From: Candidatus Aenigmatarchaeota archaeon
Lineage (GTDB): Archaea; Aenigmatarchaeota; Aenigmatarchaeia; CG10238-14
Assembly (NCBI GenBank): GCA_038999265.1
Contig: JAWAAR010000002.1
Coordinates: 1-47,579 of the forward strand
Length of the DNA stretch: 47,579 nucleotides
Direction of reading: 5' to 3'
Part shown: positions 1,526-37,057 of the stretch, one piece after another
Layout: each line of letters begins with the position of its first letter
How positions within the stretch are numbered: the first letter of the stretch is position 1
Translations under genes and position numbers: made by a program
Notes under the pieces: generated by a model
Seen by the model: the letters and a program-made list of their open reading frames with translations, nothing else
Told to the model about the DNA's origin: nothing
Database searches by the model: none

Positions 1526-1608
1526 AAATTGTTAAAATCCCATAAATAACCAAAATCCACTTTAAAATATTTGGAACTTTTTTTCCCGATCTAAAAAATG
1601 AATAAAAA

Positions 1609-5998: not shown

Positions 5999-5999
5999 A

Positions 6000-8410: not shown

Positions 8411-8567
8411 TTTCCCTTAAATAGAAAATAATGTTAATCAAAGTATTAAAATTTCTTATTTTTTAATTTTAAAAAATAATATAACTCTTTTTTCTATTTA
8501 ATGGTAAAAAAAGTCGGATAAGATTTAAATCTCTAATTATAAATACCTTTTTCAAGTAGTGAATTAT

Positions 8568-11591: not shown

Positions 11592-11610
11592 TTTTTTTCT
11601 ATTTCTTTTC
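11592..11610 (+). terminator. Oligo-T tract directly after the stop of the 836-aa gene; candidate archaeal intrinsic terminator
   Basis: GTTTTTTTCTATTTCTTTTC starts one base after the stop. Archaeal RNA polymerase is known to terminate at T-runs. Not tested here. Confidence 0.3.
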
Positions 11611-11646
11611 TATAGATTTATTATTCGGTTTTAAAGTTACATAAAA

Positions 11647-11683
11647 AATAAAAACCAAAAAAAACAATATTTGAATAGTGGTT
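11647..11683 (+). promoter_or_regulatory. Conserved upstream block shared with 36192-36229 (AATAAAAACC(C)AAAAAAAA..ATATTT..AGTGGTT); likely the promoter/5' leader of paralogous pilin genes
   Basis: Hand alignment of the two upstream regions shows near-identity over about 35 nt immediately 5' of both pilin-like starts. Confidence 0.4.
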
Positions 11684-11685
11684 TT

Positions 11686-22327: not shown

Positions 22328-22735
22328 ATGAAATTTGAGAGGGCTTATGATATTCAGGTAAAACTAAACAGGATACTTTCTGTCCTAGAGCCATCCCACA
22401 TAGACAGGAAAAGAATAATTTGCATGAGGAGTTTTGGTTCAAAATCAAAAGCAATCGCAAGGATATGGAGCATGCCTAGGATTTGGCAAAAAGCGCTTGG
22501 GATAAAATCACACTATGTGATAGAGGTTATCTCAGAGAGATTTGACAAACTCAATGAAGAAGAAAAAGAGAAGGTTTTGATACACGAGATGATGCATATA
22601 CCAAAAACATTTAGTGGGGCCCTCGTCCCACACAGGTGTTTTGGGAAAAGGATAGACAATAGATCCGTTGAAAAAATCTACCAGGAATACAAGAGAAGAC
22701 TAAAAGAATTCAATAAATCAACTATTTTCACTTAA
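22328..22735 (+). CDS. Putative small zinc metallopeptidase (SprT/WLM-like HExxH protein)
   Basis: The single motif LIHEMMHIP in a 135-aa basic protein. Family assignment is tentative. Confidence 0.55.
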   Translation: MKFERAYDIQVKLNRILSVLEPSHIDRKRIICMRSFGSKSKAIARIWSMPRIWQKALGIKSHYVIEVISERFDKLNEEEKEKVLIHEMMHIPKTFSGALVPHRCFGKRIDNRSVEKIYQEYKRRLKEFNKSTIFT

Positions 22736-22899: not shown

Positions 22900-22931
22900 A
22901 AAACTTTAATTCAGGAACCCAATTATTATTG

Positions 22932-25043
22932 ATGTCCATCTTCAAGAAAAAAGAAATTGACTTAAAGAAAATAGAAGAAGAGGCAAAAAATTATTCACCA
23001 AAGGAAATCAAAGAACCAAAGAGACCCTTGTTTGAAAGAGCCTGCAAGTTTGCAGAGAGAACCTTAAAATTGAAGGCATCAGAAAATGCTAGGAAAAAGA
23101 TGAATGAGTCAATAATGATGCTGGACATGGATATAACACCTGATGGTGTCTTCTCTCTTTCAATCTTAACATTGATCGTACTTCTTGTTGGTATTCTCCC
23201 GCTTTTCCTAATTTCAGTAAGTCTTGGTGTTCTAATGTTTTTTATTCCGTTTATTGTAGCATATATAATTTACACCTATCCTAGTTATTTGGCAACTGTC
23301 ACTAAAATAAGGGCAGCTGATGAAACCATAAAGGTTATACTTTACATGGTCATATATCTCAGATTTAATCCACAACTGGAGGGGGCCTTGAATTTTGCAG
23401 CTGAACATTGTCATGGCCCAATTGGAAAGGATTTCAAACAAATCCTCTGGGGAATAGAAACTGGCAGGTTTATGAATATAAATCAAGCAATAAGCAGCAA
23501 GATGGAAAAGTGGCTTCTGTGGGACAAAGAGTTTGTGGAATCCTTGAATCTGATTCTTTCGATAACCAGGATGACAACTGAAGATGTTAGAAACAAAAGT
23601 TTGGAAAAGGCCCTTTCATACATCCTTACCTCAACATATGAAAAGATGAAGGATTATAGCCAGAATCTGAGATCCCCGATAACAATGATACATAGCATGG
23701 GTATAACATTTCCATTAATGGGGCTTATAATGTTTCCAATGATATCAATCTTTCTACATGACCAATTTAATCCAATATATTTGGCTTTTGGATACATCGT
23801 TGTACTTCCATTGATACTATACTTTTACCTGAAAAGAACGATCTCAAAAAGACCAGGAGCATTCTCCTTTCCAGATATATCATATCACCCAGATTTACCC
23901 CCACCTGGCAAATACTCACTCAAGATGTTCAAGAAAAAATATTTTGTGCCTGTAGCAATAGTTGCAATAATGGTGATGTTTTATGTTTCCATCCCGGGAA
24001 TTGCCCACTTTTTCACATTGGCTTACAACTATTTTTCTCTAAAGAAAAATCCAGTAACATTTGAGGAGATGTGGAAAAGCTATCTTGGGAAGCAGTATCA
24101 ACCAGAAGTTTTATTCAGCCTTACCTTCTATTCCCTAAGTATAGTATGGGGTATTGGGCTGGCTGTGGTAATATATTGTCTGGGGATGAGTTACCAGAGG
24201 TTGAAAATAAGAAATGAGATAAAACAGATAGAAGATGAATTCCAGATAGCTCTTTTCAACTTAGCTGATGTTCTGTCATCCGGCATACCAATAGAAACTG
24301 CCTTAGAAGAAGTGTCCTTCAAATATAAGCAATCAAAAATGGATAAATCACCGATGTACACATTCTTCACCGAGATGTTAAGGAACATGAAAAACATGGG
24401 GATGACATTGGAAAGGGCTGTGTTTGACAGGAATTACGGGGCAATAATAAGGTTTCCATCTAAAATTGTCCACGATATAATGAGGATAATAATATCTGCG
24501 TCAACAAAATCATCTGTTATACTTTCAGTTGCAACCAGATCTATCTCTGACTTCCTTTCAAAAACAAGGAACATAGAATCTATGCTAAAGGAGATGCTTG
24601 AAGAAGTTTCATCTGCAATAAAACTACAGGCATCTTTTATTGCGCCATTCATCTGTGCTATAGTGGCTGCTATGGCAACATTTATAGTTGAATTATTGCA
24701 AAAGATTGCAGAATTTTTAGCATCAATAGAGGAGACATTTAATATGGGTGGTACATTTGTGCATAGTGGTACCGTGGGTTTGGGAGAAACCATTGGTTTA
24801 ATAAAAATAGAACAGGTGATGCCACCGACGGCCTTTCAATTGATAGTTGGGATATATATGATAGAAATAGTTGTTATTCTATCCTACTTTGGAAATGGGA
24901 TAAGAAATGGTTTTGACGAAACAACCAGAAATGTATCCATAGGGAAAACACTTTTCACATCCCTCATACTTTACTCTTTTCTACTTCTATTAGCATTGTT
25001 TATGATGAGGACAATGGTTCCTGTATTTGGAATGGGTGGTTAG
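22932..25043 (+). CDS. Polytopic membrane platform protein of the T2SS-F/FlaJ/TadC family (archaeal type IV pilus/archaellum assembly)
   Basis: About 700 aa with at least 8 TM segments and two soluble regions shaped like T2SSF domains (ADETIKVILYMVIYLRFNPQLEGALNFAAEHCHGPIGKDFKQILWGIETG; EDEFQIALFNLADVLSSGIPIETALEEV). Directly precedes a pilin-like gene. TTG 22929 is an alternative start. Confidence 0.6.
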   Translation: MSIFKKKEIDLKKIEEEAKNYSPKEIKEPKRPLFERACKFAERTLKLKASENARKKMNESIMMLDMDITPDGVFSLSILTLIVLLVGILPLFLISVSLGVLMFFIPFIVAYIIYTYPSYLATVTKIRAADETIKVILYMVIYLRFNPQLEGALNFAAEHCHGPIGKDFKQILWGIETGRFMNINQAISSKMEKWLLWDKEFVESLNLILSITRMTTEDVRNKSLEKALSYILTSTYEKMKDYSQNLRSPITMIHSMGITFPLMGLIMFPMISIFLHDQFNPIYLAFGYIVVLPLILYFYLKRTISKRPGAFSFPDISYHPDLPPPGKYSLKMFKKKYFVPVAIVAIMVMFYVSIPGIAHFFTLAYNYFSLKKNPVTFEEMWKSYLGKQYQPEVLFSLTFYSLSIVWGIGLAVVIYCLGMSYQRLKIRNEIKQIEDEFQIALFNLADVLSSGIPIETALEEVSFKYKQSKMDKSPMYTFFTEMLRNMKNMGMTLERAVFDRNYGAIIRFPSKIVHDIMRIIISASTKSSVILSVATRSISDFLSKTRNIESMLKEMLEEVSSAIKLQASFIAPFICAIVAAMATFIVELLQKIAEFLASIEETFNMGGTFVHSGTVGLGETIGLIKIEQVMPPTAFQLIVGIYMIEIVVILSYFGNGIRNGFDETTRNVSIGKTLFTSLILYSFLLLLALFMMRTMVPVFGMGG

Positions 25044-25595
25044 ATGAAGGGAATGGCACTTGAAACGGTTGGTTTTGTTATAATAGCACTGGTTGGGGTT
25101 TTATTGCTTATACTATTTATCTCTGGATCCCTGTCTGACCTGACAAAAAATGTCTTCTGTTTTTTTTATGAGAAGGTCTCTTCTAAAAATATAGAAACCT
25201 GTGAGGAAATAGAAAAACCAATGGAACAAATTACAATAAGTCCAAAGTCATCCGAAGATCTTGCAAGATATATCGCAGCTTATTCTATAATTTGCTGGGA
25301 AAATGCTAGAAAGTCTATTAAAACAAAAGATACTAACTGCTTTAATTTAAGGCTGGAAGGTGGTTCTTTAAGTCCGCCAGTTTATGAGATTGATGTCACA
25401 AATATTCTTATAAGTGAAGGAGGATGTAATAGATTAGAAAATAGCCAGAGTATTGATTCATCTGGAGGTATTCAAAATACAAACTGTGGAACACATGATA
25501 ATATAGGATGGGAAGTTGATGGTGGGATATCAGACCAAAAACTAATACTGATAAAATACAGTGATTTTAACAGACAAGTAATTATAAAAGGCTAG
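25044..25595 (+). CDS. Class III signal peptide (pilin-like) protein
   Basis: MKGMALETVGFVIIALVGVLLLILFISG: an M-K-G leader, an acidic residue near +4/+5, and a hydrophobic helix. The ATG abuts the platform gene stop. Confidence 0.65.
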   Translation: MKGMALETVGFVIIALVGVLLLILFISGSLSDLTKNVFCFFYEKVSSKNIETCEEIEKPMEQITISPKSSEDLARYIAAYSIICWENARKSIKTKDTNCFNLRLEGGSLSPPVYEIDVTNILISEGGCNRLENSQSIDSSGGIQNTNCGTHDNIGWEVDGGISDQKLILIKYSDFNRQVIIKG

Positions 25596-26211
25596 ATTTT
25601 TTCCTTGTTAAAGTTATTGCTATTATTGCTGTCAAAAGGATCACAAGAACAACCGGGAGGATGTATATGTATTTAGGTACTGGTTTTTTCAGGCAGTCCT
25701 TATCCACATTTCCCATACAATCTGGGTCACACATTCTATCTTCTATCGGATTGCAAACCTTATCGTATGAGCCTGATTTGCAATCTTTCGGGCAACTGAA
25801 ATATGTTTCAAATCCTTCACAGGTTTTATTGTTGTTGCAAAGCTTTCCTGTCAACTGATACCTGAAAATCTCATCTCCTTGTTTTTTAACTATTAGATAA
25901 TCTATGTCATCAAAATACTCTAAATTTATCATTCTAGATGTTTTATTAACCTCTATTGGCGGATCGGACATCAGCAAAAATGTCAAATATATTTTTTTCT
26001 CAAGGACTGTTTTACCATCAGATATAAGTTCTATTGAATATGTGCCACCTTCCTCTGATTTCTTTGGATATCCTGGCATTGCTCTAATGTCAATCAATCT
26101 TACATCATCATCTTTTGTGAATTCAAGATTAACCTGTATTATTTTTTCTTGGGATTCAACTAATTGAAATAGTAACAAAACGAAGAGAATTGAAATTAAA
26201 ATTTTTTTCAT
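25582..26211 (-). CDS. Signal peptide plus C-terminally anchored protein with the C-x(n)-C-P-x-D-C motif; partner of the upstream protease; paralog of 30640..31191
   Basis: MKKILISILFVLLLFQLVES signal. LCNNNKTCEGFETYFSCPKDC. C-terminal TM helix plus RKK. AGGTGAT SD 5 nt before the ATG and 11 nt after the protease stop. Confidence 0.6.
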   Translation of the reverse strand: MKKILISILFVLLLFQLVESQEKIIQVNLEFTKDDDVRLIDIRAMPGYPKKSEEGGTYSIELISDGKTVLEKKIYLTFLLMSDPPIEVNKTSRMINLEYFDDIDYLIVKKQGDEIFRYQLTGKLCNNNKTCEGFETYFSCPKDCKSGSYDKVCNPIEDRMCDPDCMGNVDKDCLKKPVPKYIYILPVVLVILLTAIIAITLTRKKSSLL

Positions 26212-26222
26212 TTAAATCACCT

Positions 26223-28265
26223 CTAGCATTGTAATATTGAATTTATTTGTGCTTGAGCACCGTTATCACCATATTTTCTTTCAAGGGAATCACTGAAACA
26301 TATTTGTATAGTTAATTGATCGAATAATGGTCCCATAATACCTCTGCAATGTGAGATTCCTGGTGATGGGTTGCATATATTACCTACACATAGATTTCCG
26401 ATACATCTTGGTATACAATTATTGCAGTCCGCATCATGATTAGGGTTGTCACAACAACAGGTTGGATATGAATTTGGGCAGGGTTTACTTGGAATTTCAG
26501 TATTCTGTCTTGACCAAGTGTAATAATCATACTCATCACACAACCAATAGGTATGACCGATCTCATGGGCTGTACCTTCTATTCCTATATGTTCAATTAT
26601 TACTGTGTCTGTTTCTCTGTAAGTAAAACCAGCAATACGATTATCACAACTCCCTCCCAAATTAACTTTTATATCATCATCAGTCAATCCTATAATCCTG
26701 TCTCTATCAGGATCCCATGTAAGTCCTGAAGATTGGGCACAAGATTTTATTTTATCTAAAACATTATGTGCATCATCTTGACTAACACAACTTACATCTA
26801 TAATACAATTCTGTGTAGAGGGATCAAGTATTCTTATATCAACTTTGTTTCTACAAGAATTCAACAGAGTGTTTCTTATAAAAACATCGGCATGCTGGCT
26901 TGAATAGTATGAAAAATCATTTTCTAGATTCCAATTAACAGGAACAAAAATTAATCTGAGTTTAATATTTGTTTGAATTGTTGTGGTTGTGGTGGTTCGG
27001 GTTGTGGTCCTGGTGGTTGTTTTGGTGGTTGTGGTGGTTCTAGTGGTAGTTGAAGTTGTTGTGGTGGTTGTCGTGGTTGTCGTGGTCGTTCCAATTGTAA
27101 ATGTCCCACTTTTACATCTAACACTAACATCATTAACTATGATATTATTCTCACAATTAACCCAAAATTCAACAGTATAGGTTCCATCCTGTGTTGGAGT
27201 GTATCTTCTTTCCCAATACCATCTTCCACCTGTTTCTGAAGTAATAACTTCACCCAATGTCTCACTTGTACCATCAGGTTTCATTACTTTGAACGCAACC
27301 CAAGTATGAGGTTTGGGAGATGAGCCTTTTATAACCATTTCAGCATTCTTTTGTGGGTTTGATGGGATAAACTCCAAAGTTTCATCTCCACTACAAACGG
27401 AAGATGGTACAGAATTCACTTGTATCCATGTTTCCCCTCTACAATTATCACCACTATAACCATCAACGGTTACGGTTACCTTATATATTCCTTCCGTAGT
27501 TGGTCTAAAAACATCATTTAGGACATATGATGGGTGATACTCTTCTCGGAATCCATCAGGACCCTCGACTACTATAGTATATTTATGGTTTGGATCATCA
27601 TTGCAACCTCTGCCTATTTCCCCAATAACACATCCCCAATCATTGAAAAATCCACCCAAATTACAACAATTATCACCCGGGTTGATTTCTAGAATTTGCC
27701 CCGAGGAACAACACCAATGACTATTTATATCCTTTTGGGCCCTTGCTTGAACGGAAAAATATGGACACTCTTGTCCCTGAGAATCTGCAAACATAAAACT
27801 TATTCCAACATTATTGTTATCCTTCCTGTAAATATTTATTTCATATTCCTCAAATCCTATCCTCCCTGTCAGTTTCCTAATAAGGGATGGTAATTCTCCA
27901 CCTCTTATATTTCCATTTATTTCAATTGGGCATTCAACCTTTCTGCAGTCCACCTTTGATGTAAAGTTTAGGCAAATATAATTCCCCACTGTAACCCCTG
28001 TAGGTAAAACCCTTTTTTCACCATCGTTCGAAGCATAAAAGTCATCTGTTAAAGATGAGAAAACAACCTTTCTTCTTATACCCCTCAATTGTGTTTGGGT
28101 ACATATTGAATTGGCTTCTGAAACTATTGTGTCAAAGGATTCATATGTAGCTTGTCTATGAGATTGGATTGTCATGTCAGAAAGTATTTTCAGGAAGAAT
28201 GTCAATAATATCAGTGAAATTACCAGAGTTCCAGTGATCCAAATCCAAGTGGAGACTCCTTTCAA
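26223..28265 (-). CDS. Pilin-like N-terminus fused to beta-rich domains, a Thr stalk and a Cys-rich HExxH zinc-metalloprotease domain
   Basis: MKGVSTWIWITGTLVISLILLTFFL leader and helix. Poly-Thr at about 26980-27090. HEIGHTYWLCDEYDY is encoded at 26553-26567 onward (the H-E-x-x-H-x(3,4)-L-x-D-E-Y pattern recalls M6/M64-type peptidases), followed by many Cys. Confidence 0.75.
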   Translation of the reverse strand: MKGVSTWIWITGTLVISLILLTFFLKILSDMTIQSHRQATYESFDTIVSEANSICTQTQLRGIRRKVVFSSLTDDFYASNDGEKRVLPTGVTVGNYICLNFTSKVDCRKVECPIEINGNIRGGELPSLIRKLTGRIGFEEYEINIYRKDNNNVGISFMFADSQGQECPYFSVQARAQKDINSHWCCSSGQILEINPGDNCCNLGGFFNDWGCVIGEIGRGCNDDPNHKYTIVVEGPDGFREEYHPSYVLNDVFRPTTEGIYKVTVTVDGYSGDNCRGETWIQVNSVPSSVCSGDETLEFIPSNPQKNAEMVIKGSSPKPHTWVAFKVMKPDGTSETLGEVITSETGGRWYWERRYTPTQDGTYTVEFWVNCENNIIVNDVSVRCKSGTFTIGTTTTTTTTTTTTSTTTRTTTTTKTTTRTTTRTTTTTTIQTNIKLRLIFVPVNWNLENDFSYYSSQHADVFIRNTLLNSCRNKVDIRILDPSTQNCIIDVSCVSQDDAHNVLDKIKSCAQSSGLTWDPDRDRIIGLTDDDIKVNLGGSCDNRIAGFTYRETDTVIIEHIGIEGTAHEIGHTYWLCDEYDYYTWSRQNTEIPSKPCPNSYPTCCCDNPNHDADCNNCIPRCIGNLCVGNICNPSPGISHCRGIMGPLFDQLTIQICFSDSLERKYGDNGAQAQINSILQC
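26980..27090 (-). repeat. Imperfect (ACN)n codon tract encoding a poly-Thr stalk (approximate bounds)
   Basis: The plus strand reads GTTGTGGTTGTGGTGGTT... for about 110 nt. Translates to TTTTTTTTTTTSTTTRTTTTTKTTTRTTTRTTTTTT. Confidence 0.8.
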
Positions 28266-28304
28266 GGTATCACTAATTTATTTTAGGTTTTTAAAATATA
28301 AACC

Positions 28305-28742
28305 ATGAAGGCTCAGATGTCATTAGAATACATAGTAAAGATGATGATACTTCTGGTTGTTGTTGTTGTTGTCATTGGGCTTATCTTAAAGTTTTCAAGT
28401 GATCTTAAACTCACAATAAAAAAACTGTTTGGTGAAGAAAAGAAAAACCTAGATTTTCCACAGATAATTGAGAAAAATGATTTCAGTGCAGGTGAAGTGT
28501 CGGTTTACATAGAAAGTTGCTATTCCCAGATGACCTCTTTGAAGGAAAGCGAACAGAAGGATATTGTTTGCTATTTATTAAAGTCTAGGAGTGGTTTTGG
28601 TTTTTCGCCGTCAGATATTAGATTGTCTTTGGATCTAACAGGCAGGGTTGAGTTTAATACACAAAACCCAGGACAATTCACAGGAAACGCACTTACAATA
28701 AAATTCCTCGATGCTGAAAATAAAATAGAAGTGAGTGATTGA
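28305..28742 (+). CDS. Class III signal peptide pilin-like protein (K-A-Q-M-S-L-E type)
   Basis: MKAQMSLEYIVKMMILLVVVVVVIGLIL: Q-x-S-x-E after a basic leader, as in EppA-processed archaeal pilins, with Glu at +5 if cleaved before Q. Confidence 0.7.
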   Translation: MKAQMSLEYIVKMMILLVVVVVVIGLILKFSSDLKLTIKKLFGEEKKNLDFPQIIEKNDFSAGEVSVYIESCYSQMTSLKESEQKDIVCYLLKSRSGFGFSPSDIRLSLDLTGRVEFNTQNPGQFTGNALTIKFLDAENKIEVSD

Positions 28743-28743
28743 T

Positions 28744-29232
28744 TTGAAGGGTATTGCCCTCAACACAATTATTTTTACATTGATAGCTCTTGCATCTGTT
28801 GTTATCCTTCTTTTTATTGTAAATTCTATAATACCTAACTTCATGGGAAAATCTTTTTGTAGGGTCTATCAAACTATATTTTCTTTGCCTTTAACAAGAA
28901 AACTGCAACCAAACATACCTGGATGCAGCTTGTTCCCAGAAACAAAAAGGATAATATTAAAAGAAGGTTCCTGCAACCCAGGAAACATAGCAAAATACAT
29001 AAAGGATTGTTGGGAAAAATCCCAGCAAGGCCGGGGTGGACAAACATTCATCTGTTTTGAATTATTTATGGAAAATGTCCAGTCGGGTTTCGGAGAAGAT
29101 GATGTAAAAAATCTAATAGATTCCCAAAACTTAAGAGATAGCATAGATTGGAAGATTGGAACCATAGAAGGGGAAGATTTAACTGTTATAATAAAGTACA
29201 ATTCTGAAGATGGTTTAATAGAAGTGATATAA
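28744..29232 (+). CDS. Class III signal peptide pilin-like protein
   Basis: In-frame TTG 28744 gives MKGIALNTIIFTLIALASVVILLF, matching the M-K-G pattern of its neighbours. The track start is GTG 28735. Confidence 0.6.
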   Translation: MKGIALNTIIFTLIALASVVILLFIVNSIIPNFMGKSFCRVYQTIFSLPLTRKLQPNIPGCSLFPETKRIILKEGSCNPGNIAKYIKDCWEKSQQGRGGQTFICFELFMENVQSGFGEDDVKNLIDSQNLRDSIDWKIGTIEGEDLTVIIKYNSEDGLIEVI

Positions 29233-30656
29233 TGGAGATAGATCTTGTAGGAGCAATTGCAATAGGCTTGGCCTTGATTATAGTTTCACTATTGCTTATA
29301 AAATTTATAGCTGATTTTTCAAGAACAAGTTTCCTGAAAAATGTCAAGGAAATGGTTTCAAATCTTTATTCTCAAATATTCGGAAAAAGCTATTACAATG
29401 TCTGCGAATCATTCAACAACAGTTATATTTCAATGAATGATTTTGAAACATTGATAAATGCATACTATCACAAGAGGTGTGGAGATGCCAAGGTTAATGT
29501 CATACTCAGCTTTTCTGTGACAAAAGATGATATAAATAAAATAGCAAAGGACTTGGGGGTAGCAAAAGATGGAAAACTGGTTATATATGAGAGTGCCAAA
29601 CCTGTTGGGATGGGAGGAATAATAATAGATGGGTACAAAAACCCAACTTCAAGGTTTGTGTTTAAAGCAAATGATAGAATACTTATATGGAATGATGGAT
29701 CACCGGAAAAGGATGTTCTATTGAATTTAACAGAAATTGAATGTGATCCATACACACTGAGCTGTAAACCAAGATCCCCTGAATTTGGTGTATGGATGAA
29801 CCCAATAACAAAGGATAAGAAAAGAGGAGAGGAATGTAGATACAACTCTGAATGCTCGGGTTCCATGGTTTGTGTCAATGGCCATTGCTGCTCACCCGGG
29901 GAAACATGGGACGGAACCAGTTGTGTATTTCAATATACCTTCACAATTCTATTTATACATTTAAAAGAGAAGGGGCAAACTGATGGTATAATGGAATATT
30001 CAAATTTTCAAAGTCTCGCAGAGAATTTCAGGCAGACATGGTCACAGATAACACCACTTTCCTCCTGTCTCAACAAGGTTGGAATTATTATTTCTGAATA
30101 TATTTGTGAAGTACCTGTACAAGATGACATCTGTTCAGGTGATAATAGGAAAGTTGAAAGAACTTACAAGGAAACAACTAAAAATATAATGGAATGTGTT
30201 GAGAAATTTGGATATGGAAATATACATACCAGAGTGGTGGGTGTAGTTAATAAAGAAAGTGTCTGTGGAAATTATTATGGATACAGCGGAGGTTACAATT
30301 CCCCAGTTGTTATTTCCAACCCATCATCAGATGTTTTAAGTGGAATTCAATTCTTGTGTTCTCATGAAATGGGGCATACTTTTGGTTTGTGTGATGAAGG
30401 TTACGGAAATTCTTTGTGTTCAGACTGTAGAAATGGTTTGGGTGGTATTTGCTCATTTGGTGGCTCGGGCTGTTTTGACTTAACTAATTCCAGAAATTGT
30501 AAAAGAAATGGTGGGACAGATTGCCCGAATGTTCCGGAAGGGCCAAGTATTATGTGTACATTTGATAGTTGTTCGAGAGGATGCTCATACGCAACAACCT
30601 TTGCACAAACAAGCTACCAACATTTACAAGGTGAATTGAATGAATATTGTGAATAG
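29232..30656 (+). CDS. N-terminally helix-anchored (pilin-like) Cys-rich HExxH zinc metalloprotease; paralog of the C-terminal domain of 26223..28265
   Basis: MEIDLVGAIAIGLALIIVSLLLIKF. HEMGHTFGLCDEGYG is encoded from 30363. Very Cys-rich flanks (CRYNSECSGSMVCVNGHCCSPG...). Confidence 0.75.
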   Translation: MEIDLVGAIAIGLALIIVSLLLIKFIADFSRTSFLKNVKEMVSNLYSQIFGKSYYNVCESFNNSYISMNDFETLINAYYHKRCGDAKVNVILSFSVTKDDINKIAKDLGVAKDGKLVIYESAKPVGMGGIIIDGYKNPTSRFVFKANDRILIWNDGSPEKDVLLNLTEIECDPYTLSCKPRSPEFGVWMNPITKDKKRGEECRYNSECSGSMVCVNGHCCSPGETWDGTSCVFQYTFTILFIHLKEKGQTDGIMEYSNFQSLAENFRQTWSQITPLSSCLNKVGIIISEYICEVPVQDDICSGDNRKVERTYKETTKNIMECVEKFGYGNIHTRVVGVVNKESVCGNYYGYSGGYNSPVVISNPSSDVLSGIQFLCSHEMGHTFGLCDEGYGNSLCSDCRNGLGGICSFGGSGCFDLTNSRNCKRNGGTDCPNVPEGPSIMCTFDSCSRGCSYATTFAQTSYQHLQGELNEYCE

Positions 30657-31191
30657 ATCACTTATCTTAATCTTGATTATTTTAATTCTACACCCAGCTA
30701 TAGCAAAAATAGAATTGCAAAATGTTTATTCTATTTATGTGGAGGTTTTCAGAAATGACAGTGTAAATCCGATAAGTGTTGGAACAGTGAGGGGAACAAT
30801 ATCACATTTTTCTTCTCAACAAAAAGATTATTCTGTAAAAGTTTTAGGTCCTAGAGATAAGATTTTATTTGAAAGGTATTTGGAAATACCTTTTGTAATT
30901 TATCTTGAACCAGAGGGTAGCTTGAACCTTGAAAGTAACTTGATCCAATTAAGAGTCCCATATTCAGAAGAAGCAACTAGGATAAGATTATACCATCTGG
31001 GAAAAATTATACTTGACATTGACCTGTCACAACTCTGCAACAAGAATTCTGTCTGTGATATAGGGGAAAATAAATACAATTGCCCTGAAGATTGCTACAA
31101 AAGAGAATTTTCGTGGGGAGTGTATATTTTATTAATCGCCGCTTTGATTTTAGTCTTGGTATTTCTAAAATTAAGAAAAACAAAGAAATGA
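30640..31191 (+). CDS. Signal peptide plus C-terminally anchored protein with the C-x(n)-C-P-x-D-C motif; partner of the upstream protease; paralog of 25582..26211
   Basis: LILILIILILHPAIA signal. LCNKNSVCDIGENKYNCPEDC. TM helix plus KLRKTKK. Overlaps the protease gene by 17 nt. Confidence 0.6.
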   Translation: MNIVNRSLILILIILILHPAIAKIELQNVYSIYVEVFRNDSVNPISVGTVRGTISHFSSQQKDYSVKVLGPRDKILFERYLEIPFVIYLEPEGSLNLESNLIQLRVPYSEEATRIRLYHLGKIILDIDLSQLCNKNSVCDIGENKYNCPEDCYKREFSWGVYILLIAALILVLVFLKLRKTKK

Positions 31192-31220
31192 TTTATTGTG
31201 GGGATTGTATAATTTTAAAT

Positions 31221-31781
31221 ATGAAGGGTGATGTTCAGGCAGTCCCGGCATTCATATATGTGATAATAGGTATTTTTGTCGGTTTAATTATGTTGCTGAT
31301 GGTTTACAAATATACGCCTATTTTTATGGAAAAGGAAAAAAATATAACCCTAAGTGGAAACAAGGAAAAAGTTGTCAAAAATATAGCAAAGATAATAGAA
31401 GAATGCTGGGAAGATAATAGGAGGGGTCTTGGTGATAAATCAAATATTTGCAGGGAGGTAACAATAGAGAATGGTTTGGATGTGAAGGAGATAGATGTTG
31501 TAAATTTTATTGATTGCAAGAAATTGCCCGACTCAAATTGTTATGTGTATCCTGATAAATCGGATGATTGTTCTTTCTGTACCTCACCATATTTCAAGGA
31601 TACAGACAAAATTTACTGGCTGGCCGAAGGAGGAAATACAGGCTTGACCATAAGTTATGATGGGGATAAAAGGAAGATAATAGTCAGTGGTTCACCCTGT
31701 ATTAATTGTCAACATTTGAGATATTGTAAGGTAAAGTGCATTGAGGAGGTAAATGATCCCAATTGTATCGGTGTATGTTAA
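31221..31781 (+). CDS. Class III signal peptide pilin-like Cys-rich protein
   Basis: ATG 31221 gives MKGDVQAVPAFIYVIIGIFVGLIMLLMVY. The track start at 31092 would overlap the previous gene by 100 nt, so I reject it. Confidence 0.6.
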   Translation: MKGDVQAVPAFIYVIIGIFVGLIMLLMVYKYTPIFMEKEKNITLSGNKEKVVKNIAKIIEECWEDNRRGLGDKSNICREVTIENGLDVKEIDVVNFIDCKKLPDSNCYVYPDKSDDCSFCTSPYFKDTDKIYWLAEGGNTGLTISYDGDKRKIIVSGSPCINCQHLRYCKVKCIEEVNDPNCIGVC

Positions 31782-32306
31782 ATGAAGGGTTTGGCAAACT
31801 GGATAATGGTGATTGGGGGTCTTATAATAGGGATAACTGTTTTTTATGCAGGAGTAAGCCTCCTTGTCAAACAGATGAGGATGGCTCAAGTTCAAACAGT
31901 TTTGGAAGAGGTTCAAGATTTTCACAACCAACTTTCAGCTGTTTGCAGGATGGGTCTAGGACACAAAAAATCCTATACCATCTCATTACCAGATAATGTA
32001 AGGGCTGTATATGTAGCAAATAAAAGTTATGAATTACCACCGGATAAAGTCTCAGTTATGATATCAAATAGAGTTATGAGTGTCGGAAATTACACTTGCA
32101 TCCAGTTCTTCAATAACAACCTTCCCGTTTGTGAATATATAGGTTGTTATGCCAACTTCACGTATATTGGTTCTCCTTCCATGAAACCAAGCCTACAAAC
32201 CTTGCTTGCAAGTATTCGTGGTAATTATCCTGTTTATGTATATTCTGTAAATATTGAAAAGATTGGACCTTATTTTTTGGATGTGATTTCCGAACCCAAA
32301 CCTTAG
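31782..32306 (+). CDS. Class III signal peptide pilin-like protein
   Basis: MKGLANWIMVIGGLIIGITVFYAGVSLL. The ATG abuts the preceding TAA. Confidence 0.65.
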   Translation: MKGLANWIMVIGGLIIGITVFYAGVSLLVKQMRMAQVQTVLEEVQDFHNQLSAVCRMGLGHKKSYTISLPDNVRAVYVANKSYELPPDKVSVMISNRVMSVGNYTCIQFFNNNLPVCEYIGCYANFTYIGSPSMKPSLQTLLASIRGNYPVYVYSVNIEKIGPYFLDVISEPKP

Positions 32307-32343
32307 AAATTAAAAATAAAAAAACAAATTATTTTTGAGAAAA

Positions 32344-32775
32344 ATGAAAGGGTCAACCGTACTTTCTGAAAATATACTAACGGCAATGTCAGTGATAATC
32401 TCTTTTATTCTTATGATAATAGTTGTCCAGATAGTGCTGAGTCAGCAATCTGAGAGAACTTATAGGGCCTTGTTTGACTCGATTGCAAGGGAAATAGCAA
32501 TGATAATAGACAGGTGTGCTTCAACTCCCGGAAATTTAAAAGTTGAATATAAAATACAGGAAGGTGTGCATGCGAATATAACAATAGACTACAAGTATGT
32601 TTTTGTCAATTATGGTGAGAGGATCTCAAGAAAACCATATTCTGGCCTGACTTATTCACCAGGTGTCAACAATTTCAGAATCTATGAGTTTATTGAACCA
32701 AAGGTACTTTGCTTTGTCAAGGATGATAATCAAATAACAATCTTTAACAGACCATGTGATCAGGTGTCTGTATGA
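32344..32775 (+). CDS. Class III signal peptide pilin-like protein
   Basis: ATG 32344 gives MKGSTVLSENILTAMSVIISFILMIIVVQIV. The track uses TTG 32335. Confidence 0.6.
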   Translation: MKGSTVLSENILTAMSVIISFILMIIVVQIVLSQQSERTYRALFDSIAREIAMIIDRCASTPGNLKVEYKIQEGVHANITIDYKYVFVNYGERISRKPYSGLTYSPGVNNFRIYEFIEPKVLCFVKDDNQITIFNRPCDQVSV

Positions 32776-33560
32776 AAGGGCAGGTTAGTTATATAATGAA
32801 ACCCATGATGTTGATAGGTATTATAATACTCTTGCTTTTCTTGATACAGACCTTATATTCCGGAAGAGGGAGAGAAAGGATGGCTGAAAAGAAATTGGAT
32901 ACCGTAAGTACAGCAACAAACATACTTCTTATATTGGCAAATTCCAAGCAGTGTTTGGCCTATCATTCATCTATCACTGACAAAACCCAGGGGATTGTTT
33001 TGAATGTAACCAAATTGGATATATTCCAAAATAACTATCAGGAAATAGAACCGGAATGTGCGAGAAATTATGAATTTGGATGGAAAGTTCAGGTCAGTCA
33101 AATGGGAAGGCCTGTTGGGGGATCCAGTAATGTCGAGAGGGCTTGGACCTTTGGGGCAAGAGATTTCTCAAAGGATAGTTCATTGAATAATGAGGTGAGA
33201 TTCTGGATACCGGTTGGAATAAAGTATCCGAAAGGTGATGCTAGATGTGGTGCAAACAACAGAGATGGGTGCGTGAAACTTGGAAAGATGGATATATTAT
33301 TGGTGGATGGCGAGTTGGAAAAATTGGCTGGTTTCTTTGACTGGAGTTGTATGATGGGTAGACTTGGAAGAATGACCTCAACTTCAACAGAAGTCTCCGT
33401 AAGTCAAAAGGTAACGTATGATTCCGCAAGCAACAGACTTTGTGTTGGAAGTTCATGTAGAAGATTACAATGTCCGTTGCTTTATTTTGATGGCTTCAAC
33501 TCAAAAGGAACTTATAGTCTCAAGTTGAATTATCAATCAGGAAATTTGGTGGTTGGGTGA
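32772..33560 (+). CDS. Class III signal peptide pilin-like protein
   Basis: MKGQVSYIMKPMMLIGIIILLLFLIQ. ATGA start/stop overlap with the previous gene. Confidence 0.65.
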   Translation: MKGQVSYIMKPMMLIGIIILLLFLIQTLYSGRGRERMAEKKLDTVSTATNILLILANSKQCLAYHSSITDKTQGIVLNVTKLDIFQNNYQEIEPECARNYEFGWKVQVSQMGRPVGGSSNVERAWTFGARDFSKDSSLNNEVRFWIPVGIKYPKGDARCGANNRDGCVKLGKMDILLVDGELEKLAGFFDWSCMMGRLGRMTSTSTEVSVSQKVTYDSASNRLCVGSSCRRLQCPLLYFDGFNSKGTYSLKLNYQSGNLVVG

Positions 33561-34861
33561 AAGGTCAGACGATGGAGATGATGGGTTTCTTGATATTAGC
33601 TGTCACAATTATTGTAGTAATACTTTATATGAGAACTCATCTTGCCGGAACTTATGGGAGAAGTTTCTCCTCTCTGGTTCAAAGGCAAGAGGTTGAAGGT
33701 TTTAGGGCAGGGGCAACGACTGTTCTTCAAACGACAGAAGAAAAGACTGGAAAGAGTTTATTGGAATTGTTGGGGATTGCATCATACAATGGTGCCTATA
33801 ATTTAAACAATCCCTGGGAATATGATTTTGGACCGGGGAGAGGGGTTGTAAACTTAAGGGATGAGATAACATGGAGAATGGATGAGATTTATGGTCAAGG
33901 TAAATGGTATATAAAAATACCTTTTCCTGATGTAATTCCTAGATACCAAATGGTTATGATTGTTGATAGTTCTGGAAGTTTATGTGATGATTTTCAGAAT
34001 ATAAAAAATAACTTAAAGAATATAGTCGAAAAACTTAGACAAAAATACAACCTAGCCGTTACAATTTATATGTTACCCGGTGGACAGGAATGCTGTGGAA
34101 CTGATGGGGGTAAGCTAATGTGTGAAGGGTTGTTTGAAACAGAAAAATATCTTCATTGTATAGATTTGGATCGGAACAGTTTGCAAAATGTAAATAAAAA
34201 TATTTGTAGGCAAGAATATAGACCAATTAATAATGAGGACTGGGGAAGAGGTTTAGCATGTGCTGTTGAAATAGGCCCATATGAGGGATGGTATGATTTT
34301 ACAGCAAAAATAGGTGTCATCCTATCTGATGAATTGACAACCGGAAGTGAAAATTTTGGCAATCCAGAAACATCAACTAGTTTGGAAATAGGAATATTAG
34401 CAGCTAGAGGAACGGGGGCAAAACCTTTTATGAATGTATTTCCATTGAAAGCATATACCGGAAAAGATTGTTGCCCGGATTGTAATTGCGAAAATCCAGA
34501 TCAAAAAACAGAATATAAATGTCCGTTATGTCCTGAAAAAATTTGTTCTGTATGTGTAAGAGGTGATGGTATAGATTGGCAAATTTTCAATAAACCTTCC
34601 TGTCGGTATGAAAGTGAATTGATAAGTCAGATGGATAGATTAGCTTCAGAGACGATGGGGGAAAGATATAACTTAAATGATAATGATGTTTCAAGGGCTA
34701 TTGAAGAAATTTTTAAAAATCACGATTTTAGTGGTATAAAAACTTACATTGATTTGGGAACCGAACCCCTGAATAAAAGAAACTTAAATTCAATAGTAGT
34801 ACCGGCACCTGTTCCTTATGTGGGTGGATATGCAAATGTTTATATTTACACTTGGGTATAA
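33557..34861 (+). CDS. Pilin-like N-terminus fused to a von Willebrand factor A (MIDAS) domain, with a Cys-rich C-terminal part
   Basis: GTG start gives MKGQTMEMMGFLILAVTIIVVILYM. MVMIVDSSGSL (D-x-S-x-S MIDAS, encoded at 33965-33979) at the start of an alternating strand/helix region. GTGA overlap with the previous gene. Confidence 0.7.
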   Translation: MKGQTMEMMGFLILAVTIIVVILYMRTHLAGTYGRSFSSLVQRQEVEGFRAGATTVLQTTEEKTGKSLLELLGIASYNGAYNLNNPWEYDFGPGRGVVNLRDEITWRMDEIYGQGKWYIKIPFPDVIPRYQMVMIVDSSGSLCDDFQNIKNNLKNIVEKLRQKYNLAVTIYMLPGGQECCGTDGGKLMCEGLFETEKYLHCIDLDRNSLQNVNKNICRQEYRPINNEDWGRGLACAVEIGPYEGWYDFTAKIGVILSDELTTGSENFGNPETSTSLEIGILAARGTGAKPFMNVFPLKAYTGKDCCPDCNCENPDQKTEYKCPLCPEKICSVCVRGDGIDWQIFNKPSCRYESELISQMDRLASETMGERYNLNDNDVSRAIEEIFKNHDFSGIKTYIDLGTEPLNKRNLNSIVVPAPVPYVGGYANVYIYTWV

Positions 34862-34869
34862 AATATTTG

Positions 34870-36171
34870 ATGCTCAATAATAAAGGTGTTTCTTTTTCAA
34901 TAATTCCAATAATAGCACTAATTGGGGTTCTTGGATTAGCCATCTGGGCTGGTTATCAATTATCAGTAGGGTCTAATATCCAAAGTCAATCTGGAATTTC
35001 AACACAGGATACAGCTGCTGATAATCTTCAAAGATTAAAAGATAAGTTAACGGAGGATCTTAGTTTTTCTGCTTCAGAAGCTTCACTTGATATAGCAAAA
35101 AATGGAGGAACAGGAGCCACAACTTATTGGTACTGTAGTGGAACCCCAATACCACCAGAACCAGATGAGGTGGAATATGCTATGTCGACTTTAACTCTAG
35201 GCAATCTAAATGGATATATTTCTACATTGAGAGAACCTGAAAATCCAATTTTCATAGAAATGGAACCAGTAATACCCGATTACACATGTGTTGGTATTTT
35301 TGAACCATCATCTACTCAGTGTGATAATCAGAATTCAGTAAATTGTGAGAGATTTGGTGTCACCGCTTCCGATGGACCCGATGGAAAAATAGAAGTTAGA
35401 AAACCGTCTTATGCTAGCGATGATGATGATTTGGAAGCTTATGTTAATGATAATAGGTTTTATTGGTTGTACTATAGACTTTATAATAATTTTGATTTAC
35501 TAACATCAAATGCAAATATATTGGCAGAAATAACACCAGGTTGCGGTTATTATGTTTTAGATAATGGTGAATTAATCTCGATAGAAGAGTATGAAAGAAG
35601 AGTGTGGCAACCACTAATCGATGATGGGTGTGTTGATCAAAACAGACAACCACTTCCAATACCACCTGCCCCCTTTGAATGTCCAAGTAGAATTTCAGCA
35701 GTCTTAGCAGATATCGCAGCAAAGAGAAGTGGTGCTGTATATGGTTTTGTTGATGGATCATTTGCAAGAAGTGAAATAGAAAACAGACTAAGAGAATTTT
35801 GTAACAATGCAAAAAATTTATTTGATAATTATGTAACTTGTTCATGGGAAATTCAATGTTTCTCTAGTGGAGGGGGTGAGTGTTTAGCAAGTAATTGTGA
35901 AAGATCCACCAATCCACCTATTTGTAACACAGCACCATCACTTTCTCTTCAAGGCCAAATTAATGAAATTTGGGGAGGGAGCACGAGGTTCAAAATATCA
36001 TTTGAAGATTCCAAATTCAATATTTACTCTAATGAGAGAGAACCACAACATATGGTTTGGAATGTAAATGGTGCTATAAACTTCAACTATGCTGGTTGTC
36101 CATTATTGGTTTATGTTGGGCCAGGGGGGAGTTCCGGAGGATCCCAACTTCCACCAGCACCAGGATCATGA
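34870..36171 (+). CDS. Large pilin-like protein (N-K-G leader plus hydrophobic helix), Cys-containing, unknown domain
   Basis: ATG 34870 gives MLNNKGVSFSIIPIIALIGVLGLAIWAGY (the track uses TTG 34852). Last long gene of the co-oriented run. Confidence 0.6.
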   Translation: MLNNKGVSFSIIPIIALIGVLGLAIWAGYQLSVGSNIQSQSGISTQDTAADNLQRLKDKLTEDLSFSASEASLDIAKNGGTGATTYWYCSGTPIPPEPDEVEYAMSTLTLGNLNGYISTLREPENPIFIEMEPVIPDYTCVGIFEPSSTQCDNQNSVNCERFGVTASDGPDGKIEVRKPSYASDDDDLEAYVNDNRFYWLYYRLYNNFDLLTSNANILAEITPGCGYYVLDNGELISIEEYERRVWQPLIDDGCVDQNRQPLPIPPAPFECPSRISAVLADIAAKRSGAVYGFVDGSFARSEIENRLREFCNNAKNLFDNYVTCSWEIQCFSSGGGECLASNCERSTNPPICNTAPSLSLQGQINEIWGGSTRFKISFEDSKFNIYSNEREPQHMVWNVNGAINFNYAGCPLLVYVGPGGSSGGSQLPPAPGS

Positions 36172-36191
36172 TCTATCACGTCAAAGAAAAC

Positions 36192-36229
36192 AATAAAAAC
36201 CCAAAAAAAATATTTTATATAAAGTGGTT
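36192..36229 (+). promoter_or_regulatory. Conserved upstream block, the copy matching 11647-11683
   Basis: AATAAAAACCCAAAAAAAATATTTTATATAAAGTGGTT aligns with the region upstream of 11686 and contains a TTTATATA TATA-like element. Confidence 0.4.
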
Positions 36230-36231
36230 GA

Positions 36232-36813
36232 ATGAAAAAAGCCCAGATGTCACTTGAGATGATTATCGGATTATTAATTTTACTTGTAGTTGCTGTAGTT
36301 GTTATAAGAATATTTTTGAAAGGTATGAGCCAAAATCCACAGGATCAGTTTGAACAGACATTAAAGGACATGAACTTTATAGGGGAATGTGACAGACTGT
36401 GCAATGAGTATAAAAATAGTGGTACAAGAGCTGCTTTGGCAAAATTCTGCTACACTAAGATGACTGGAAATCCAGATTTAAACAAGAATGGGAAGATTGA
36501 CAAATTAAAAGCTAAGACAAAACTCCTTGAAATCTGCGAGGATTCAGTTTACTGCTTTCATATGACAACCTGTGAGACTGATGCCGGAATTATAGACTGG
36601 AGTGACTGTAGGGATGCTGTGTGTAATGAATATATAGAAATATATACTAGTGCTGGATATGGCGATGCATTAGATAGAGCCAATAGAAAAGTTTCAAGTT
36701 TATTCTCACTAGGATCATGTACCGGTATAGGAGATGAAGAAAATTGGATGAAATTGTTTTTCAGTAATCCATCAAACAGAGATGATCTCGAACATCCATG
36801 TGGAACCACATAA
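36232..36813 (+). CDS. Class III signal peptide pilin-like Cys-rich protein; paralog of 11686..12498
   Basis: MKKAQMSLEMIIGLLILLVVAVVVIRIF. The shared core is CNEYKNSG...FCYTKMTGNPDLNKNGKIDKLKAKTKLLEICEDSVYCFH. Confidence 0.7.
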   Translation: MKKAQMSLEMIIGLLILLVVAVVVIRIFLKGMSQNPQDQFEQTLKDMNFIGECDRLCNEYKNSGTRAALAKFCYTKMTGNPDLNKNGKIDKLKAKTKLLEICEDSVYCFHMTTCETDAGIIDWSDCRDAVCNEYIEIYTSAGYGDALDRANRKVSSLFSLGSCTGIGDEENWMKLFFSNPSNRDDLEHPCGTT

Positions 36814-36845
36814 ATTTTAAATATTTTCTACAACTCTATTAATTT

Positions 36846-37057
36846 GGGTGAGTTGGTCAGATAGCTTCGCCCTGTCCTCAAAAACAGGGTGAGGAATTTC
36901 CATCCATAGAGGGGAAGATACCGAGAGGCTATTGTTGATATCAGAAACGATACCCACGGGTTGAAACGGATCAACAACCCCAATGAAATGCAAGCCCCCG
37001 AGGCGCTTAGATGGATGCTATCTTAAACACAAAAGATGGGATATGGCCAACACACCC
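36846..37057 (+). ncRNA. rnpB: RNase P RNA, apparently size-reduced (~212 nt)
   Basis: Hand-traced pairings. P1: 36846-36858 with 37045-37057 (12 of 13 pairs). P2: AGATAGC 36859-36865 with GCTATCT 37017-37023. P3 hairpin: CCCTGT 36870-36875 with ACAGGG 36884-36889. CR-I-like GAGGAATTTCCATCC at 36891-36905. CR-IV-like TAGATGGATG at 37008-37017. CR-V-like ACACAAAAGATGGGATAT at 37027-37044. P4: 36898-36904 with 37035-37041. The order of the 3' elements mirrors E. coli M1 (CUAGAUGAAUGACUGUCCACGACAGAACCCGGCUUAUCGGUCAG). Locally GC-richer than the flanks and contains no ORF. Confidence 0.75.

Follow-up and report, generated by a model that had tools for sequence, protein, structure and literature searches.

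A 47.6-kb stretch of DNA from a Candidatus Aenigmatarchaeota archaeon (the window, by which we mean the whole of the stretch analysed; GC ~35%) carries, at 22929-36813, a gene for a type IV filament platform protein followed by 14 further genes. Eleven of these encode products with canonical class-III-type leaders, one encodes a product whose hydrophobic helix has a non-canonical start, and two encode proteins with Sec signals. The platform protein, denoted P2, is accompanied by a conserved protein set of its own, whose members combine [KR]-G/A leaders with long N-terminal helices. We see about an even chance that, in this Ca. Aenigmatarchaeota archaeon, the locus forms the 'P2 cassette' of a type IV filament system that resembles Epd and Tad. 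A sequence-only reading had placed a type-IV-filament locus here, with a FlaJ/TadC-type platform and class-III-type leaders. Its coordinates and gene calls are correct, and this core of it holds, as the platform family matches T2SSF and the leaders are both enriched and conserved. The names attached to homologues of the window genes are almost all Candidatus Aenigmarchaeota/Aenigmatarchaeota, which belongs to the DPANN archaea.

P2 (22929-25043, plus strand, 704 amino acids) is polytopic, with ~9 hydrophobic segments. The profile search proposed for it gave a divided answer. On its own, the window protein stays below the Pfam threshold for T2SSF (E 0.0025, 18.2 bits against a cut-off of 25.2, residues 444-586), whereas T2SSF (PF00482) is matched by 17 of 30 P2 homologues (best E 4.5e-9), and in five of six homologues the isolated N-terminal half matches the whole model (best 29.2 bits against the cut-off of 25.2). 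Because the homologues and their N-terminal halves match T2SSF, P2 is, on grounds of homology, an archaeal platform protein of FlaJ/TadC/PilC type with two T2SSF domains, and the two T2SSF-like regions claimed for the 704-residue protein are recovered in both halves of the family. Across 40 sequences, with identity down to 33%, 30 columns are invariant; the homologues come almost all from Ca. Aenigmatarchaeota. The AlphaFold2 model (predicted local distance difference test score, pLDDT, 79) is all-helical and consists of two units, each a long helix, a helical bundle and transmembrane (TM) helices. No relevant match was returned when the family profile was compared with PDB sequences, and hhalign of the N-terminal against the C-terminal half detected no internal repeat, although Pfam finds T2SSF in both.

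Downstream of P2, [KR]-[GA] stands directly before a hydrophobic helix of ~20 residues in 11 products (25044, 26223(-), 28305, 28744, 31221, 31782, 32344, 32772, 33557, 34870 and 36232; genes are named by their lower coordinate, with (-) for the minus strand), which start M-K-G, M-K-(K)-A-Q or ..N-K-G. About 13 class III leaders had been counted in the sequence-only reading; 11 prove canonical, 29232 is atypical, and 25582(-) and 30640, which lay outside that count, are of Sec type. The leader of 29232 is without a basic residue, its orthologues keep M-E-x-[DE]-h-h-G, and its N-terminus does not count as a canonical class III site. When six-frame open reading frames (ORFs) of at least 100 amino acids are counted over the window, the strict motif is found in 9 of 19 at 25000-36900 and in 2 of 53 elsewhere (Fisher p = 4e-5), and one of the latter two, 11671, is a true paralogue of 36232. 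The same holds more widely: over 37 P2 loci with at least 8 kb of downstream sequence each, 135 of 685 six-frame ORFs downstream of P2 carry the strict motif (median 4 per locus), against 57 of 586 upstream. The K-G before the helix is conserved in orthologues at 25-60% identity. The types of cleavage site predicted here (KGQV, KGQT, KAQM and KGQM) resemble those of Epd pilins, which are KGQV, KGQL, KGQI and RAQI (PMC4371748).

The arrangement of the genes is also conserved. The order P2, 25044, [25582(-), 26223(-)], 28305, 28744, 29232, 30640, 31221, 31782, 32344, 32772, 33557, 34870, 36232 was compared with a set of 87 related loci (cited below by L numbers), 78 of which come from a scan with one genome per species; nearly all of those 78 are Aenigmatarchaeota, with a few labelled Nanohalarchaeota, Nanohalobium, Nanoanaerosalina, Asbonarchaeaceae or Nanobdellati. 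In this comparison, which the sequence-only reading had asked for, the post-P2 order recurs in relatives whose P2 is ~40-74% identical to that of the window, the order 32772, 33557, 34870 is kept in L013, L041, L083, L035, L042 and L053, and gene order as such is kept across dozens of loci. Within the window, the 11 genes from 28305 to 36813 are co-oriented, as had been noted up to 36171, with junctions of -17 to +60 nt that include ATGA and GTGA overlaps.

These observations bear directly on the reading that chance is at work, with unrelated secreted proteins, whose MKG starts are merely Sec signals of the ordinary kind or anchors that stay uncleaved, encoded beside a degenerate T2SSF gene. 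In keeping with such a reading, no product has a pilin or class III match above threshold in Pfam or NCBIfam, the latter yielding nothing useful for 10 of the locus products. Against it stand the enrichment of leaders in the window, the conserved position of the K-G in orthologues, the gene order kept in dozens of loci and the constraint on P2; moreover, the true Sec-type signals of 25582(-) and 30640 look different. We regard a chance assemblage as scarcely credible.

The sequence-only reading had described P2 as a lone platform with neither ATPase nor prepilin peptidase in view. For the window the second part is right: no T2SSE ATPase was found in it by tblastn with an Aenigmatarchaeota ATPase or by a Walker-A scan, in which the only ORFs matching G..G.GK[ST] were two ABC ATPases, and a motif scan gave no polytopic GxGD protein. 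The relatives alter the picture. On the 757-kb contig L005 a T2SSE ATPase gene is followed by a gene for a 644-residue platform, P1, which is 32% identical to the window P2, and then by MKG-leader genes; a P2 orthologue with MKG-leader genes of its own lies 8 kb past ATPase-P1. P1 lies directly 3' of the ATPase in L005, L008 and L009, and P1 proteins taken from these three loci are 28-32% identical to P2 over the full length. Each is a full double-domain platform of 640-720 amino acids, and P1 and P2 are, to judge from these alignments, two ancient paralogues. P2 is thus the second of two platforms rather than a lone one. The relatives' ATPase (743-761 amino acids, for example 747) is encoded with P1, often on the same contig as P2 and 8-18 kb from it. 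Its absence from the window is less of a puzzle than had been supposed, and probably reflects the architecture of the locus and not a lost function.

The pairing of ATPase and P1 is general: in the relatives, P1 is in every case translationally coupled to the one T2SSE ATPase that was seen. With the L005 ATPase as query more than 7,000 matches were obtained, and among the best 120 those with a name are nearly all from Aenigmatarchaeota; ATPase matches and P2 homologues occur on contigs of the same sizes (412,547; 840,504; 149,732; 258,585; 109,064; 21,899). By tblastn over the 87 loci, every ATPase match with sequence beyond it has a P1-type gene next. The position of P2, in contrast, varies. 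It may lie 8-18 kb downstream of ATPase-P1, as on a 412-kb contig, where the two share a strand and are 18 kb apart, and on an 838-kb contig, where the distance is 16 kb. It may directly precede ATPase-P1 (P2, pilin, ATPase, P1 in L015 and L017) or be divergent from it (L023-L025, L028, L046), or it may have no ATPase within 10 kb, which is the case in the window and in L006, L011 and L012, the relatives closest to it. Most loci with full flanks have over 10 kb between P2 and ATPase-P1. Both P1 and P2 accompany one ATPase type in L005, L015, L017, L024, L025, L028 and the 412-kb and 838-kb contigs; the window shows P2 only. The ATPase is similar to Archaeoglobus fulgidus GspE and to bacterial Tad CpaF (E 1e-25 to 1e-23), with FlaI weaker (E 1e-13 to 1e-14). 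MKG mini-pilins of 59-72 amino acids follow P1 in L005, L008 and L009; these are found at P1 loci only, with none in the window.

Two platforms with one ATPase could also be explained by a single machine that makes a single pilus, with P1 and P2 forming a heteromeric platform of the sort proposed for EpdJ/EpdK and TadB/TadC. The fibre would then consist of the mini-pilins of the P1 locus, and the proteins of the window locus would supply a minor-pilin, priming or tip complex and decorations. This is a serious rival, although we think it unlikely. Methanococcus maripaludis needs both PilC paralogues, EpdJ and EpdK, alongside one ATPase, EpdL, for its pilus, and Tad needs both TadB and TadC (PMC4371748). 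Makarova clade 1 is described as having an ATPase, two TadC, small stand-alone major pilins of ~70 amino acids and at least five minor pilins (PMC4858521). Further, P2 is often adjacent to ATPase-P1 or 8-18 kb downstream of it on the same strand, and mini-pilins occur at P1 only. However, P1 and P2 are full double-domain proteins, unlike the half-size TadB and TadC, they are more than 10 kb apart in most loci with full flanks, and each has its own pilin set, with the 36232 family directly beside P2 in many lineages.

L011 bears on this choice. At 651-12097 it contains two P2-type platform genes 7 kb apart (P2 71% identical to that of the window), each followed by MKG-leader genes that belong to it; an ATPase is absent over 22 kb, and the tandem is without P1. 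The tandem is a duplication at the level of the cassette, and since it comes without an ATPase it indicates that P2 and its pilin set form a unit that shares an ATPase. Together with the private pilin family beside P2, it leads us to favour two platforms sharing one ATPase over a heteromeric platform.

Several other genes were seen around P1 and P2 in the relatives. A conserved protein of 504-546 amino acids is encoded on the minus strand between the P1 and P2 pilin sets (L003 635-2149, L005 8079-9719, L009 18976-20490). Its N-terminus is charged, it has several TM segments, and a GPGPVDV motif lies in its extracellular C-terminal domain; it was considered as the peptidase in L003 and L005 and rejected, its membrane region and extracellular domain being accessory-like, and it may be an accessory component. 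A 568-residue protein upstream of P2 in L001, considered as an ATPase, was likewise rejected, being secreted and Thr-rich. Small proteins that show no clear signal or TM start are encoded divergently just upstream of the ATPase in L008 (8867-9957, minus strand) and L009 (8679-9913, minus strand). One has heptad-like charged repeats, no Pfam matches are on record for them, and they could be regulatory or motor-associated partners. In L017 two classic archaeal pilin-type genes (7476-8575, minus strand), with leaders ..KG/LSPLIASVLLIAFT and ..KG/ISPLIATVLLIALT (a slash marks the predicted cut here and below), lie just upstream of P2-ATPase-P1; their family differs from that of the window pilins.

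Enzymes and an adhesin module had been proposed among the mature parts of the locus proteins, and both proposals are supported. The adhesin candidate is 33557 (33557-34861, plus strand, 434 amino acids), a modular pilin-like protein with the leader MKG/QTMEM and a VWA module with a metal-ion-dependent adhesion site (MIDAS), in which D137-x-S139-x-S141 is invariant. In a profile search against the PDB the VWA domain of collagen VI came first (E 0.003), followed by those of midasin and integrin. It is the only pilin-like product of the locus that was modelled, and the AlphaFold2 model (pLDDT 85) has a helix at residues 2-57 (56 residues) and then an alpha/beta domain, which fits the pilin architecture of a ~50-residue N-terminal alpha-helix and a globular domain. 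Foldseek relates the model to integrin beta-I (E 9e-4, prob 0.96), the CMG2 VWA domain (prob 0.98-0.99), factor B and von Willebrand factor A1.

The enzyme candidates are 26223(-) and 29232. The former (26223-28265, minus strand, 680 amino acids) is a modular pilin-like protein in which an MKG leader and an N-terminal module are followed by an immunoglobulin (Ig)-like part, a poly-Thr linker and, at the C-terminus, a zincin-like module with AHEIGHTYWLCDEY. The first 150 residues are paralogous to the stand-alone 31782 product, and residues 294-428 resemble the Ig-like, Thr-rich part of the Haloferax volcanii S-layer glycoprotein (E 3.7e-4). The latter (29232-30656, plus strand, 474 amino acids) starts with MEIDLVGA and has a conserved N-terminal module, a segment rich in Cys and, at the C-terminus, a zincin-like module (SHEMGHTFGLCDEGY). 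The C-termini of both have many Cys and a common invariant H-E-x-G-H..L-C-D-E motif, and the top matches of the zincin-module profile in the PDB, although weak (E 0.45-1.3), are all zinc proteases (archaemetzincin-type 3lmc and 2x7m, snapalysin and TACE).

The cargo is not constant between relatives. Orthologues of 26223(-) carry Peptidase_C25 (L001) or GH43/32 (L011) instead of the zincin. Peptidase_C25 scores 36 and 52 bits in the orthologue cargo of L001, with 51.9 bits in the 29232 orthologue, and GH32N in orthologues reaches 25 bits against a cut-off of 22.1. The 31782 orthologue in L003 is fused to GH43/GH32N, and orthologues of 32344 have extra modules (L013, 644 amino acids; L041, 697 amino acids), including a transglutaminase-like module in L041 (21 bits). 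The small window proteins 25044, 28744, 31221 and 32344 have orthologues of two to four times their length. Judged from these comparisons, the N-terminal carrier modules are conserved while the C-terminal cargo is exchanged between relatives. Fixed N-terminal and swapped C-terminal modules suggest that a contact apparatus, used to attach to a host, prey or substrate, is adapting fast.

If the P2 cassette works as a filament system, the precursors would be inserted by Sec and trimmed after K-G/A by a class III peptidase of the PibD/EppA type encoded elsewhere. The N-terminal helices would then be extracted from the membrane and polymerised on P2, powered in trans by the ATPase that is encoded with P1. 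The result would probably be a fibre or short pseudopilus built of pilins of the 36232/11671 and 28305 types. The larger modular pilins would be minor or tip subunits that expose the VWA/MIDAS adhesin of 33557 outside the cell and present the putative zincin hydrolase modules of 26223(-) and 29232 there.

A number of points weigh against this scheme. Poly-Thr stalks such as that of 26223(-) are also typical of proteins that stay anchored in the membrane. That the locus proteins are polymerised and cut by a class III peptidase is something we infer, and a motif scan for A24/GxGD class III peptidases (PibD/FlaK/EppA) over the window and the 87 related loci (~1.2 Mb) was negative except for the platform itself. 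The assembly ATPase was seen in relatives, this organism being represented by the 47.6-kb window. In the profile check that had been proposed for the leaders, the matches to Pfam Class_IIIsignal (PF04021) stayed below threshold, with E 0.0027 for 36232 and 0.052 for 28305. It speaks for the scheme that PibD accepts leaders of as few as 3 residues (PMC4187195), but the three-residue leaders found here are at the lower limit known for this enzyme and shorter than those known to be cut by FlaK. Assignment of the zincin and VWA modules comes from motifs, weak profile matches and one predicted structure. Finally, Foldseek of the full-length P2 model against the PDB recovered generic helical membrane proteins only (best E 0.028), with the PilC model 3jc8_Ca at rank 23 (E 1.5). 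As the PDB is without full-length platform proteins, this last result neither supports nor refutes the identity of P2 as a platform.

Some of these points would be met by a system without any filament, bindosome-like in no more than a loose sense, in which class-III-like N-termini, cleaved or not, tether adhesins and hydrolases at the cell surface and P2 at most organises or extracts them. The large mature domains, and the poly-Thr stalk and S-layer-glycoprotein-like segment of 26223(-), would suit such a system, as would 29232 with its lack of a canonical cleavage site and the negative search for a peptidase in the window and 87 loci. Class III signals are established on sugar-binding proteins of Sulfolobus and widely predicted elsewhere (preprint 10.64898/2026.04.22.720090). 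On the other side, the genes are tightly linked to a dedicated platform paralogue across the phylum, and the small members (143-193 amino acids) are pilin-sized, with a near-invariant N-terminal helix and Glu at +5. There are also no substrate-binding-protein domains and no importer that depends on them, the neighbouring ABC systems being MacB/FtsX and ABC-2. Overall, we hold tethering without a filament to be improbable.

A second part of the sequence-only reading had offered an effector-displaying pilus or a bindosome-like surface assemblage. Effector display is plausible given the adhesin and enzyme modules. The bindosome was rejected: no product has a substrate-binding-protein Pfam domain, and the adjacent ABC systems are of the exporter types FtsX/MacB and ABC-2. 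The Sulfolobus bindosome (Bas) is like the P2 cassette in that class III proteins which form no fibre depend on a dedicated pair of ATPase and platform. As described, however, BasE, the ATPase, is encoded beside BasF, whereas the P2 locus is without an ATPase and its cargo is adhesin or hydrolase.

A secretion pseudopilus, in which P2 and the small pilin-like proteins act as a piston that releases hydrolases into the medium as in the type II secretion system (T2SS), would account for pseudopilin-like small proteins and hydrolases in one locus, and T2SS and type IV pili are homologous machines. The hydrolases here, however, carry a pilin-type N-terminus in place of a Sec or Tat signal, and T2SS substrates have no such N-terminus. 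To our knowledge, archaea have no outer membrane or secretin to cross, and we know of no archaeal T2SS. Such a secretion device is therefore very improbable.

Among known systems, the filament reading of the P2 cassette finds its nearest counterpart in Epd of M. maripaludis (System 1/clade 1). One T2SSE ATPase with two PilC/TadC paralogues is seen in the Aenigmatarchaeota relatives too, as are very small major pilins of ~60-70 amino acids, here at the relatives' P1 loci. Further precedents for two platforms are Tad, with TadB and TadC, and System 1 and 4A of DPANN archaea, which have two platform genes. Common to both are many class III proteins with sites of the K-G-Q / R-A-Q type, at least five minor pilins plus large adhesin-like proteins, and pilin genes that lie partly away from the core. 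The likeness is one of layout and pairwise similarity. Unlike epdJ, epdK and epdL, which are co-regulated, the Aenigmatarchaeota P2 is separable, often unlinked and sometimes duplicated. Its associated leaders are only 3-5 residues long, its minor pilins bear hydrolase modules, and neither the window nor the relatives' loci yielded an EppA. No Pfam or NCBIfam match to the archaellum genes FlaH, FlaF/G, FlaC/D/E or FlaX or to archaellins was obtained at the locus.

The Tad/Flp system shares the two platform paralogues and mini-pilins of Flp size, and CpaF matches the ATPase of the relatives no less closely than any solved archaeal ATPase does. The VWA-containing, pseudopilin-like 33557 presumably parallels TadG in architecture. 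In contrast, TadB and TadC are single-T2SSF proteins encoded side by side while P1 and P2 are double-domain, and the Aenigmatarchaeota system is without a secretin (RcpA), TadZ and TadD. The TadE Pfam domain was not detected in the locus products.

Modular pilins are known from bacteria. Streptococcus sanguinis has PilB with a vWA module and MIDAS motif and PilC with a lectin module, predicted peptidase modules are also reported, and the effectors are proposed to sit at the tip of the filament (PMC8179133). The products 33557, 26223(-) and 29232 fit this design of a pilin module joined to a functional module. That survey, as published, is bacterial and keyed on the N-methylation motif IPR012902, whereas the carriers here are archaeal and of class III type; further, orthologous carriers here exchange their cargo (zincin, C25, GH43/32, transglutaminase-like) between close relatives. 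In archaea, class III substrate-binding proteins have been proposed to 'functionalise' type IV filaments (preprint 10.64898/2026.04.22.720090). The 'dark matter' islands of DPANN type IV pili, in which TadC/FlaI-type markers stand amid unannotated signal-peptide proteins that are read as diverse pilins (Makarova, Wolf, Koonin 2019, PMC6393860, Fig. 2A), are directly comparable, and the window holds such an island. The account in PMC6393860 is, in the part cited, a general prediction, without the split into P1 and P2, the conservation of gene order or the cargo modules.

The general kind of system is thus already known, be it as DPANN pilin islands, type IV filaments with two platforms, functionalised type IV filaments or bacterial modular pilins. 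What exceeds the cited portions of the literature compared here is a separable, phylum-wide P2 cassette with its own pilin family, the variable linkage of that cassette to ATPase-P1, and archaeal carriers with swapped enzyme cargo. Should the modular proteins prove to be subunits of a filament, the 'modular pilin' principle known from bacteria would extend to archaea, and the locus would offer concrete candidates for host recognition and envelope attack. It is, furthermore, a natural test case for one assembly ATPase serving two full-length platform paralogues, a question that is open for both Epd and Tad.

A life attached to other cells is assumed for DPANN archaea, and little is known of the molecules that make the contact. 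A more far-reaching and rather unlikely suggestion is that the P2 cassette makes a dedicated 'enzymatic pilus' of DPANN episymbionts. Its tip and minor subunits would be interchangeable hydrolases (zincin, C25 protease, GH43/32, transglutaminase-like) and a VWA adhesin, and with it the cell would take hold of a host cell and digest the envelope locally. The cargo would be shuffled between strains in an arms race, and P2 would divert the single ATPase from an adhesive fibre of mini-pilins.

The remaining products of the locus are small pilin-like or accessory proteins. The candidate for the main subunit of the P2 set, and candidate major pilin on account of its leader and family conservation, is 36232 (36232-36813, plus strand, 193 amino acids, 10 Cys), with the leader MKKA/QMSLEMIIGLLILLVVAVVVI. 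In the 36232/11671 family, which occurs in 41 loci and often directly beside P2, the helix is nearly invariant, with KG followed by QxSLEMIIGLIILLVVAGVVI. The small pilin-like 28305 (28305-28742, plus strand, 145 amino acids) has the leader MKA/QMSLEY, with Glu at +5; its orthologues keep KG or KA and then QMxLE, and homologues were found in 22 loci.

Two further pilin-like proteins are paralogues of each other. The first, 25044 (25044-25595, plus strand, 183 amino acids, leader MKG/MALET), abuts the P2 stop codon, has homologues in 55 fetched loci and has orthologues with C-terminal extensions of 374-732 amino acids. The second, 28744 (28744-29232, plus strand, 162 amino acids, leader MKG/IALNT), starts at TTG and has homologues in 41 loci, with an orthologue of 502 amino acids in L011. 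The leader motif likewise marks as pilin-like 31221 (31221-31781, plus strand, 186 amino acids, MKG/DVQAV, 12 Cys; orthologues of 317-513 amino acids), 32344 (32344-32775, plus strand, 143 amino acids, MKG/STVLSE) and 32772 (32772-33560, plus strand, 262 amino acids, MKG/QVSYI), the last also by its conserved order. The pilin-like 31782 (31782-32306, plus strand, 174 amino acids, MKG/LANWI) has the same N-terminal module as 26223(-). Also pilin-like by its leader is 34870 (34870-36171, plus strand, 433 amino acids, MLNNKG/VSFSI), which has no assignment from Pfam or from phmmer against the PDB.

Two paralogous accessory proteins have a Sec-type signal and a C-terminal TM segment. One is 25582(-) (25582-26211, minus strand, 209 amino acids), which is Cys-rich, is conserved in 22 P2 loci and has no Pfam match. 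The other is 30640 (30640-31191, plus strand, 183 amino acids), with homologues in 20 loci.

Elsewhere in the window, no tRNA or Rfam feature was detected, and there is no sign of a mobile element or phage, P2 homologues being found on many archaeal contigs from metagenome-assembled genomes with varied neighbours. Directly upstream of P2, at 22328-22735 (plus strand), a 135-residue PhageMetallopep/SprT-like metallopeptidase is encoded (E 1.9e-23), as is also the case in L006 and L012. About 9 kb upstream of the platform, at 11671-14075 (plus strand), a 36232-type pilin gene (11671-12498, plus strand; leader ..LKG/QMSIQ; 47% identity to 36232) overlaps the start of a gene for a NosD/right-handed beta-helix protein (12495-14075, 526 amino acids, NosD E 3.6e-15), which makes a separate pilin-plus-adhesin pair.

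The density of surface proteins in the window is unusually high. A run of predicted secreted or anchored proteins with poly-Thr linkers occupies 4034-11591 (plus strand) and includes an 836-residue protein with thrombospondin type 3 repeats and CARDB and NEW3 domains. On the other side of the locus, at 38909-42718 (minus strand), two paralogous proteins of 451 and 485 amino acids without a Pfam match have a common W-C-x-x-C-S-K-C-A-R motif. They are encoded in a tight run with an ATP-grasp gene of the D-Ala-D-Ala-ligase type (PF07478, E 2e-38), a peptide-ligase-like cluster that is unexpected in a DPANN archaeon.

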